Positions 46,178-48,413 of a stretch of 50,255 bases of DNA are shown here, one piece after another. The notes beneath the pieces were generated by a model, which had not been told where the DNA came from, made no database searches, and saw only the letters and a list, made by a program, of their open reading frames with translations. Numbering within the stretch: the stretch's first letter is position 1; each line of letters opens with the position of its first letter. The stretch comes from a phage. The stretch lies in the sequence record PV636259.1, one strand, 5' to 3'. The translations under genes and the position numbers were made by a program.

Positions 46178-46425
46178 TGAGCGAAAAAATGGTTCCTGTT
46201 AAATTAACTGAGCAAGGTTTATGGCTTCTTTATCGCGCTACGTGCTGCGAGATTATGGAACGAAACGGATTGAATCAGGATGTTATTGGTTGCGATCTGT
46301 GGGAGTTCACTAGTTCTCTTGATATGTCTTTCGATGAGATAAAAAATGAATACATAGAGAATTGGCCTTCAATCATACAGAAAGACGTGGAAGAACTTAA
46401 AGCTGACACGATCTTACAGCACTAA
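46174..46425 (+). CDS. Hypothetical protein (83 aa)
   Basis: Track ORF 46132..46425 trimmed to the ATG overlapping the dam stop; stop TAA lies inside the next motif. Confidence 0.5.
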   Translation: MMSEKMVPVKLTEQGLWLLYRATCCEIMERNGLNQDVIGCDLWEFTSSLDMSFDEIKNEYIENWPSIIQKDVEELKADTILQH

Positions 46426-46435
46426 TTGCTAAAAC
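46418..46435 (+). promoter_or_regulatory. Operator/promoter motif copy (AGCACTAATTGCTAAAAC) + hairpin ACCCGGCGAAAGTCGGGT + ATAGTT + CATCAAAACGAAATGAGG leader
   Basis: Read directly. Confidence 0.6.
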
Positions 46436-46491
46436 TACCCGGCGAAAGTCGGGTATAGTTATTTCATCAAAACGAAATGAGGAATAAGAAG

Positions 46492-46701
46492 ATGGCACGC
46501 ATTAACGCAAACTTTTTCAATATCGCTCAACAGTCCGCAAAAATGGCTGTTCATATCACTGACAAGAAAGGCGGTAACTTTGATTGGGATATTGCTATGA
46601 ACTTCCTTAAAATGGCTTATTACCTCTGCTCAGTCAAAGATGTTGAGTGTTTTATTGAAAGCGTGGAGAAACTAACCAATGCTGATAAAAAAACAAGGTA
46701 A
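46492..46701 (+). CDS. Hypothetical protein (69 aa)
   Basis: Track ORF trimmed to the ATG after GAGGAATAAGAAG. Confidence 0.5.
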   Translation: MARINANFFNIAQQSAKMAVHITDKKGGNFDWDIAMNFLKMAYYLCSVKDVECFIESVEKLTNADKKTR

Positions 46702-46951
46702 ACGAGAGGTTTGGGAGCACGCGAAGGAATGCGGAATCTCAGACGATATAGCACTAATAGCGAAATATTTCGATATAAAGGATGTTAGCATTATCTCAAA
46801 TGGCAAGATTTCATTTATGGAAGATATGCCGAGAAAAATGCATAGAGTGCCAGCAACTCCGTCACTTGAGTTTTATCGTGAAGAGGGAAAGAGAATTGAG
46901 AGAGAACGAAAAGCAGCAAAGAACAACAAGCCTTCCAGGCTTAAACATTAA
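46679..46951 (+). CDS. Hypothetical protein (90 aa)
   Basis: Track ORF; overlaps the previous gene by 23 nt across an A7 run. Confidence 0.45.
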   Translation: MLIKKQGKREVWEHAKECGISDDIALIAKYFDIKDVSIISNGKISFMEDMPRKMHRVPATPSLEFYREEGKRIERERKAAKNNKPSRLKH

Positions 46952-47183
46952 CGAAGACGATTACCAGACCATATGGATCGGAAAGAAACAAGTTAAGAAA
47001 ATCCCTTTCTCTGATTGGTTGCCTCCTGACTTCGTTAACGTGCTTTGCACTATTGGGATCGAGCAAGAGTTGCATATAGGTTATTACTCACCAGGTAGAA
47101 ACAGCATGATGCTTGAGGTTGATGGAAAACTGGTTGAGTTTAAATCTTCAGATCTAGGATTCTGGTTAAAGGCTGTGGCATGA
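46782..47183 (+). CDS. Hypothetical protein (up to 133 aa); true start unresolved
   Basis: Track ORF overlapping 46679..46951 by 170 nt in the +1 frame; the downstream part looks protein-like. Confidence 0.35.
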   Translation: MLALSQMARFHLWKICREKCIECQQLRHLSFIVKRERELRENEKQQRTTSLPGLNINEDDYQTIWIGKKQVKKIPFSDWLPPDFVNVLCTIGIEQELHIGYYSPGRNSMMLEVDGKLVEFKSSDLGFWLKAVA

Positions 47184-47261
47184 GACTTTATTTTGCTGTA
47201 GTATTAACACCGCTAATTTCATTTTCAGTAATGTATTTCATTATCATGTAAGGATTAAAAT

Positions 47262-48413
47262 ATGTCACAAGCTAAAATCACTACCGAGCAACTTATCGAA
47301 GAGCGCATGAGCGGCCTTACACTTCGCGAGATTGCGGAAAAGTACGGTATGCACATCCGCACAGTTGAAGCGCGTCACGCAAAACTTGCAAAAGAAGGCC
47401 ACTTCCACGGCAACGAGCATGTTGCTAAAAACGTTCCAGAAGGATTCATGGTAAAAGGTACATCTACTATGATTCGCGGTGATGGGACGGAAGTTGTTCG
47501 ATGGGTTAAGACCGATCAGGACCGTGAGAAGATTGCGGCAATGATGGAAGCGGCGCGTATTGCATTCTGTGAAGACCTGCCGCGAGCAAAGCCAACTGAG
47601 CTACTAACCTCACAAGGTCTTACAACAGCGATTGGTAAGCTGGCACTCTATCCGGTATTCGATCTTCATATCGGTGCGCTTGCTCATAAGCATGAATGCG
47701 GAGAGAACTATTCCACCGACGTAGCGGAAAAAGTGCTTAGCGACTTCTTTAATTACGCGATCGATATTGCTCCGAACGCAGAGAAGGCAGTTCTTTTAAT
47801 CGGCGGTGACTTCCTTCACTCGGACGGTCTTGATGCTGTTACCCCTGCAAGTGGTCACGTTCTGGATCAGGATTCACGATATGCAAAATTGGTGCATGTA
47901 GCTATTAGATCTGTTCGTCGCGCTATCGACAAAATGCTACTGAAACACAAGGAAGTCGAAGTCCAGGTTATCGAAGGGAACCACGACCAGGCAGGGATGA
48001 TTTGGCTACGCGCTGCAATGTCGGCATATTATGAAGACGAGCCGCGAGTATTCGTTGACGTTAGTCCTATGATTCTGCATAAGACCCGCTGGGGAAATAC
48101 CTTGTTGGGATACACTCACGGTCACACGATGAAAAAGGCAGACACGCGACTTGCAGCGATGGCGGCAGACTTCCGTGCAGACTTCGGTGAAAGCAAATAC
48201 GTGTATACTCACAGCGGACACTGGCATCATCAAACAATCACAGAGCACTCGCTTGGTATTGATGAAGTGCACGGTCAGTTAGGCGCGAAAGATGCATACG
48301 CAGCACGCGGAGGGTGGCGCTCATATCGCCAGGCGGCTGTAATTGTTTACGATAAGCAGTTTGGGGAAATAGGTCGCTTCATCTATCGTCCAGAAATGAC
48401 AGGATCGCACTAA
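47262..48413 (+). CDS. Calcineurin-like metallophosphoesterase with N-terminal helix-turn-helix segment (383 aa)
   Basis: Phosphoesterase motifs DLHIG, GGDFLHSDG, EGNHD, YTHGH, THSGHWHH; N-terminal LTLREIAEKYGMHIRTVEARHAKL HTH-like segment. Confidence 0.65.
   Translation: MSQAKITTEQLIEERMSGLTLREIAEKYGMHIRTVEARHAKLAKEGHFHGNEHVAKNVPEGFMVKGTSTMIRGDGTEVVRWVKTDQDREKIAAMMEAARIAFCEDLPRAKPTELLTSQGLTTAIGKLALYPVFDLHIGALAHKHECGENYSTDVAEKVLSDFFNYAIDIAPNAEKAVLLIGGDFLHSDGLDAVTPASGHVLDQDSRYAKLVHVAIRSVRRAIDKMLLKHKEVEVQVIEGNHDQAGMIWLRAAMSAYYEDEPRVFVDVSPMILHKTRWGNTLLGYTHGHTMKKADTRLAAMAADFRADFGESKYVYTHSGHWHHQTITEHSLGIDEVHGQLGAKDAYAARGGWRSYRQAAVIVYDKQFGEIGRFIYRPEMTGSH

Follow-up and report, generated by a model that had tools for sequence, protein, structure and literature searches.

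Two small open reading frames (ORFs) share a long stretch of DNA in the phage sequence record PV636259.1, and the question raised by this locus is whether they represent two overlapping genes, a single protein produced by a frameshift, or one gene broken by a sequencing error. The window, meaning the whole stretch of DNA that was analysed, is 50,255 nt in length. The two ORFs, at 46679..46951 (90 aa) and 46782..47183 (133 aa), were recovered as originally described, and their start coordinates (46679, 2 mod 3; 46782, 0 mod 3) place the second in the +1 frame of the first. Their overlap amounts to 170 nt when the second ORF is read to its furthest ATG, and the figure of 170 nt was reached because the ORF had been extended in this way. 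The two ORFs are referred to below as genes B and C, and the ORF that precedes them as gene A. On the basis of comparative sequence analysis, the favoured reading, to which a probability of about 0.85 was assigned, is that B and C are two separate adjacent small genes, with C translated from its own start, most likely the TTG at 46896.

Genomic context of the locus

The window was identified as a T1-like coliphage of the genus Tunavirus (Drexlerviridae), for which the closest complete genome was that of ADB-2 (98% identity). The 901 bases around the locus presented 94-98% identity to many T1-like coliphages and Shigella phages. The local gene order was that of phage T1, namely helicase, VRR-NUC, Dam methylase, a small ORF, an intrinsic terminator, A, B, C and exonuclease, with the DNA-repair exonuclease gene (47262..48413) located directly after the A-B-C cluster. 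The hairpin of the intrinsic terminator, 5' of the small-gene cluster, was located by a terminator scan at 46436..46455 on the plus strand, and the records of T1 and SA30RD carry a rho-independent terminator annotation at the corresponding site.

A 38-nt stretch at 46418-46455, composed of the terminator hairpin TACCCGGCGAAAGTCGGGTA and the 18 nt 5' of it, was 97-100% identical in nearly all of 189 matching Klebsiella phage records, whereas the proteins flanking the terminator were only ~50% identical in those phages. In the Klebsiella phages the element sits where a DNA methylase gene ends, and it is annotated as a stem_loop in KP36. For a non-coding element, its conservation across genera of the Drexlerviridae is unusually high. 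Genes A, B and C formed an overlap chain in every genus examined, with overlaps of 4-32 nt between A and B and of 4-56 nt between B and C, and the frame steps by +1 at both junctions in the window. The presence of this chain downstream of a conserved terminator suggests a translationally coupled mini-operon.

Gene A and the homopolymer runs

Gene A (46492..46701, plus strand; 69 aa) matched phrog_2180 (E 1.9e-23) and is annotated in relatives. It is preceded by a Shine-Dalgarno sequence with a duplex energy of -6.3 kcal/mol and overlaps gene B by 23 nt. The A7 run reported at the boundary between A and B was found within this overlap, at 46687..46693 on the plus strand; it is not conserved, being A6G in 3 of 15 genomes, including T1. 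A second run in the region, A5, is located at 46834-46838.

The presence of these two runs would be compatible with a homopolymer indel error in this assembly having split one gene into two frames, as had been proposed in the initial annotation. P0017, a 132-aa metagenomic protein from a Logan contig, switches frame at exactly these two places, joining A to B at the A7 run and then leaving the B frame for that of C at the A5 run. Judging from its protein sequence alone, these switches would be homopolymer deletions in that assembly. Such an error in the present record is scarcely credible, as the frames are the same in 14 other independently sequenced Tunavirus genomes, with no indel across 46471-47270, and B and C are separate ORFs in distant genera as well. 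An alignment of 46471-47270 was built from the window and these 14 genomes, giving 15 distinct haplotypes with 89-98% identity. The two frames were considered genuine because this alignment contained zero gap columns.

Gene B

Gene B (46679..46951, plus strand; 90 aa) was supported by a PHROG match to phrog_2817 (E 2.3e-32), by coding constraint and by a Shine-Dalgarno sequence with a duplex energy of -6.4 kcal/mol. Residues 3-75 matched positions 2-75 of the 84 positions of the profile. The gene was detected by tblastn in 848 phage records, and 33 homologues were aligned with 16 invariant columns. All homologues were 77-99 aa in length, except for P0017, the product of an error-ridden contig. 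Codon variants in the B frame between 46702 and 46895 comprised 33 synonymous and 7 non-synonymous changes, a clear signal of purifying selection. The conserved core of the protein reached residue 78 (46912), and the C-terminal tail was unconstrained. Long forms of B carry a conserved tail, SRLKR/H, which is a by-product of the LPGLN codons of gene C being read in the other frame.

The structure model of gene B (pLDDT 76.7) was composed of a beta segment, two helices, a beta-hairpin and a long helix, and no significant PDB neighbour was found for it in a structure search. Pfam gave nothing above threshold for A, B or C; an assignment of gene B to DUF7334 was considered and rejected, the match being sub-threshold (E 0.0036; 17 bits, where 27 were required). 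Although B is the more widespread family, gene B is left unannotated in RefSeq for T1 (NC_005833) and ADB-2 (NC_019725).

Gene C

Gene C, read from TTG 46896 (46896..47183, plus strand; 95 aa), matched phrog_4596 (E 2e-37). When the 133-aa ORF was used, only residues 50-132 (46929 onward) matched the profile (positions 2-84 of 85). Gene C was detected in only 138 phage records (tblastn), and distant matches began at residues 40-53 of the ORF. A HMMER scan of 1.84 billion representative proteins recovered 15 C-family clusters only, all with lengths of 78-95 aa, and the clusters outside Tunavirus began 0-4 residues before the conserved LPGLN. For C, 14 of 15 protein clusters in a large protein database were called at 95 aa. 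The codons for LPGLN, the N-terminal motif conserved across alignments of the C family, occupy 46932..46946 on the plus strand, where the B frame reads SRLKH/R.

The structure model of gene C was a small all-beta domain (pLDDT 76.2), for which the N-terminal 12 residues were predicted to be disordered. Eleven residues separate the TTG from LPGLN; these were free to vary and had pLDDT values of 46-64 in the model. A Tudor/Sm/Hfq-like identity was considered for C and rejected, as only weak matches were obtained (E of at least 0.13, TM of at most 0.47), reflecting a generic small beta-barrel resemblance.

Coding constraint across the overlap

Genes B and C were each found to be under their own coding constraint outside the overlap. 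Downstream of gene B, at 46952-47180, the 62 variable sites gave 9 synonymous and 66 non-synonymous changes in the B frame, against 43 synonymous and 26 non-synonymous changes in the C frame. Within 46782-46895 there were 15 variable sites, 13 of which were at B third positions; the changes were 15 synonymous and 3 non-synonymous in the B frame, against 0 synonymous and 18 non-synonymous (18 of 18) in the C frame. The upstream extension of the C frame, corresponding to the 38 codons from ATG 46782 (46782..46895, plus strand), was without coding constraint in that frame, and, from these substitution patterns, it most likely does not belong to the translated part of C.

The change from one frame to the other was followed in a per-site substitution table. 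Up to 46912 only B-synonymous changes were present, and these altered residues of the C frame (R>K, R>S, N>K, K>R). Constraint on the B frame stopped at 46912 and constraint on the C frame began at 46932, leaving a hand-over zone (46913..46931, plus strand) in which neither frame was constrained. This zone had 11 variable sites in 19 nt, and the changes at 46913-46930 were scattered and altered one or both frames. All variants at 46931, 46937, 46940 and 46946 were C-synonymous, except for a C>A change at 46931 in one genome; the main variant at 46931, present in 8 genomes, was C-synonymous. Variants in 46931-46946 mostly changed B (P>S, R>W, L>I, H>Y), and the A>C change at 46937 (AGG>CGG) was synonymous in both frames. 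An earlier description of the overlap as rich in Lys, Arg and Glu in both frames held for its last ~60 nt (about 46875-46930, which is purine-rich), but not for its first 90 nt.

A perfect 6-bp inverted repeat, AAGCCT-TCC-AGGCTT, was observed at 46928-46942, over the LPGLN codons and the tail of B, and was scored as a minus-strand terminator-like site. Substitutions at 46937 and 46940 break pairs of this repeat without compensation, and the C>T change at 46931 keeps a G-U pair. The repeat is probably a coincidence of coding sequence.

Start codon of gene C

Five in-frame candidate starts were compared for their conservation among the 15 genomes and for the energy of their anti-Shine-Dalgarno duplex. 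ATG 46782 was conserved, with a duplex of +0.3 kcal/mol, which corresponds to no Shine-Dalgarno sequence; ATG 46800 was not conserved (-3.4 kcal/mol), TTG 46866 was conserved (+0.7 kcal/mol), and GTG 46878 was not conserved, with a duplex of -2.2 kcal/mol and GCG in its place in 5 of 15 genomes, including T1. TTG 46896 was invariant (15 of 15), with a duplex of -6.3 kcal/mol. This value was on par with those of three secure starts, namely those of genes A and B, given above, and that of the exonuclease gene (-5.9 kcal/mol). The initial annotation had listed the GTG at 46877, one base from its true position, and had left out two further in-frame candidates, TTG 46866 and TTG 46896.

The Shine-Dalgarno-like sequence AGAGGGA (46882..46888, plus strand), located 8 nt 5' of TTG 46896, was present in 15 of 15 genomes, in 6 of them as AGAAGGA, and was unpaired in the predicted mRNA fold. 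A start for gene C with its own Shine-Dalgarno sequence inside gene B is conserved among relatives, as would be expected of overlapping independent genes. TTG 46896 is also the annotated start of C, as a 288-nt gene, in T1, ADB-2, SA30RD and XJA18. The conservation of this TTG weighs little when taken alone, as only one of its bases is freely variable (46897, a B third position). Initiation is less efficient at TTG than at ATG. The ATT at 46947, which overlaps the stop codon of B, was considered as a re-initiation start and rejected; it would drop the conserved LPGLN, and its Shine-Dalgarno sequence is weak.

Orthologues in other genera

Outside Tunavirus, gene C has its own ATG 1-7 codons before LPGLN and overlaps gene B by 4-41 nt. 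The ATG start was found with an overlap of 4 nt (ATGA) in both NBD2 (Vilniusvirus) and phiKP26 (Rogunavirus), of 29 nt in SRT8 (Sertoctavirus) and of 32 nt in IME347 (Badaguanvirus). It was also found in L022 and L023 (B 78% identical), with an overlap of 29 nt, and in L024 (B 72% identical), with an overlap of 41 nt. These last three were the closest outgroups found, and they have the same long B tail, with C starting from ATG. At the position of the relatives' ATG, Tunavirus genomes read ...AGA ACA ACA AGC, followed by CTT CCA GGC TTA AAC (LPGLN), and the ATG is missing. The ancestral arrangement appears to have been an ATG just before LPGLN, which was kept in other genera, and in Tunavirus the TTG located 11 codons further upstream appears to stand in for the missing ATG.

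Alternative readings of the overlap

If gene C were made as a longer protein, from ATG 46782 (133 aa, with a 170-nt overlap) or from GTG 46878 (101 aa), there would be a long dual-coding stretch in gene B. The 133-aa form is annotated in the GenBank record of phage LeonhardEuler (Bas13), the 133-aa ORF aligned end to end in ~65 records (tblastn), and ATG 46782 and the open frame that follows it are present in 15 of 15 Tunavirus genomes. However, the conservation of the ATG and of the open frame is accounted for by the codons of gene B itself, as a stop in the C frame would arise from only 4 of the 69 single changes that are possible in 46782-46895 without altering B. When the long ORFs of the window are read in their +1 frame, ~12-13% of the stop-free runs are of at least 39 codons; taken together with the small number of stop-creating changes, this frequency indicates that the open stretch is no more than would be expected by chance. 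B third positions varied at 13 of 38 sites under the extended C frame and at 16 of 27 elsewhere, a difference which was not significant (Fisher p = 0.076), and this stretch is the most conserved core of B. The exclusively non-synonymous C-frame changes upstream of 46896, the lack of a Shine-Dalgarno sequence at ATG 46782, and the weak one at GTG 46878, a codon which T1 itself lacks, also argue against longer forms of C. The extension was absent from all family members outside Tunavirus, and was considered not to be conserved because the outgroups have C-frame stops before their ATG (4-8 codons 5' of it in L023, SRT8 and phiKP26). A longer C is thus very unlikely.

A programmed +1 frameshift near 46913-46931 would join B to C in a fusion of ~168 aa, made alone or beside a separate B, and its junction peptide would be, for example, ...IERERK/QQRTTSLPGLNINEDDYQTIWIGK. 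The position of C in the +1 frame of B, the absence in Tunavirus of the pre-LPGLN ATG of other genera, and the 19-nt zone over which constraint on B gives way to constraint on C would all be in keeping with such an event. In principle, tRNA-Lys could slip by +1 and re-pair at the AAA-G present here at 46910-46913. However, no part of the region varies more than 46913-46931, and the 15 genomes have no slippery motif in common there; the last base of AAA-G is T in 5 genomes, T1 among them, and A in a further 6, and there is no stop or conserved rare codon at the candidate shift site. The predicted RNA structure of 46870-46990 was not significant relative to shuffled sequences (z = -0.88), the hairpin at 46928-46942 was without covariation, and nothing was found in a Rfam scan of 46300-47300. 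The features that define a programmed +1 frameshift, namely a conserved slippery or stall site, a lack of independent initiation and a stimulatory RNA element, were not found at this locus. The closest outgroups, which have the same long B tail, start C at an ATG, most phages with B lack C, and the conserved TTG with its Shine-Dalgarno sequence makes a shift unnecessary. No natural fusion of B and C was found in three large protein searches, in one of which a synthetic B-C fusion used as query against 5.8 billion proteins gave no match spanning both halves, and a literature search on Tunavirus and frameshifting found nothing relevant. The own ATG in other genera, the differing distributions of the two families, the lack of a fusion and the variability of the shift zone count against the ~168-aa protein that had been put forward in the initial annotation, and both this protein and its junction peptide are highly improbable.

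Discussion

The arrangement favoured here is that of two separate genes, in which B would occupy 46679..46951 and C would be translated from TTG 46896, served by AGAGGGA at 46882-46888. The true overlap would then be 56 nt, in which the unconstrained C-terminal tail of B would lie over the disordered N-terminal tail of C, and the remaining 114 nt of open C frame, up to ATG 46782, would be a chance stop-free stretch inside B. Conservation of both frames without indels, membership of independent families, the positions of constraint, and conservation of the TTG and its Shine-Dalgarno sequence were all observed directly. We infer from this comparison of genomes that TTG 46896 is the codon actually used, and that translation of C may be coupled to that of B. 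The orthologue comparison which had been suggested as a check was carried out and revealed two separately conserved genes, annotated in SA30RD and XJA18 as B and C with an overlap of 56 nt. Of the explanations first offered for this locus, that of overlapping genes was retained as a category, and its start codon and length were revised, from ATG 46782 or the GTG and 170 nt to TTG 46896 and 56 nt.

Further points weigh against a start at TTG 46896. An overlap of 56 nt exceeds the usual 1-4 nt, and a pattern with B constrained to 46912 and C from 46932 would also fit a frameshift fusion; such a fusion was excluded because of the comparative data, and not because of the constraint pattern. With the loss of the ATG in Tunavirus, C may need re-initiation at TTG 46896 by ribosomes that are translating B or terminating on it, or occasional +1 slippage along the purine-rich stretch at 46910-46931 might yield a minor B-C fusion, although this proposal is very unlikely. 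If true, re-initiation or slippage would functionally link two otherwise independent small proteins.

The B/C arrangement is one of ordinary overlapping phage genes, already present in the public annotations of several relatives, and no new biology is implied by it. Its main relevance is for annotation quality, as public T1-like genomes show three versions of this locus (B omitted, C of 95 aa, C of 133 aa), and the comparative evidence favours a 90-aa B together with a TTG-initiated C of 95 aa. The locus also illustrates that a long overlap or a frameshift can be mimicked when the +1 frame of a conserved gene is rich in purines and poor in stops.

Comparison with known systems

The locus is like that of its Tunavirus relatives, with identical gene order in vB_EcoS_SA30RD (SA30RD_36/SA30RD_37), XJA18-XJ-2024 (ctg_00068/ctg_00067) and T1 (ST17). 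The annotated Tunavirus orthologues share lengths of 273 and 288 nt, the TTG start and the 56-nt overlap, with DNA identity of 89-98%. Nothing substantive differs among them, the RefSeq records of T1 and ADB-2 omitting B and the LeonhardEuler record annotating the longer C. The likeness extends to NBD2 (gp47/gp46), phiKP26 (kp_57/kp_58), IME347 and SRT8, in all of which the two families lie side by side in this order, with LPGLN at the N terminus of C and with the 3' end of B overlapped by C in the +1 frame. Unlike in Tunavirus, C in these four phages begins at an ATG 1-4 codons before LPGLN, without the extra 11 residues.

The +1 frameshift site of Escherichia coli prfB is CUU UGA C, preceded by a Shine-Dalgarno sequence with a 3-nt spacing before the shift site. 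The likeness of the present locus to this programmed +1 frameshift is limited to the +1 relation and to the presence of a Shine-Dalgarno-like sequence inside the upstream ORF; in contrast to prfB, there is no conserved slippery codon here, no stop or hungry codon at the shift site and no fusion orthologue. The Shine-Dalgarno-like element of gene C lies 8 nt before its start codon, which is the spacing of initiation, as opposed to the 3-nt spacing in prfB.
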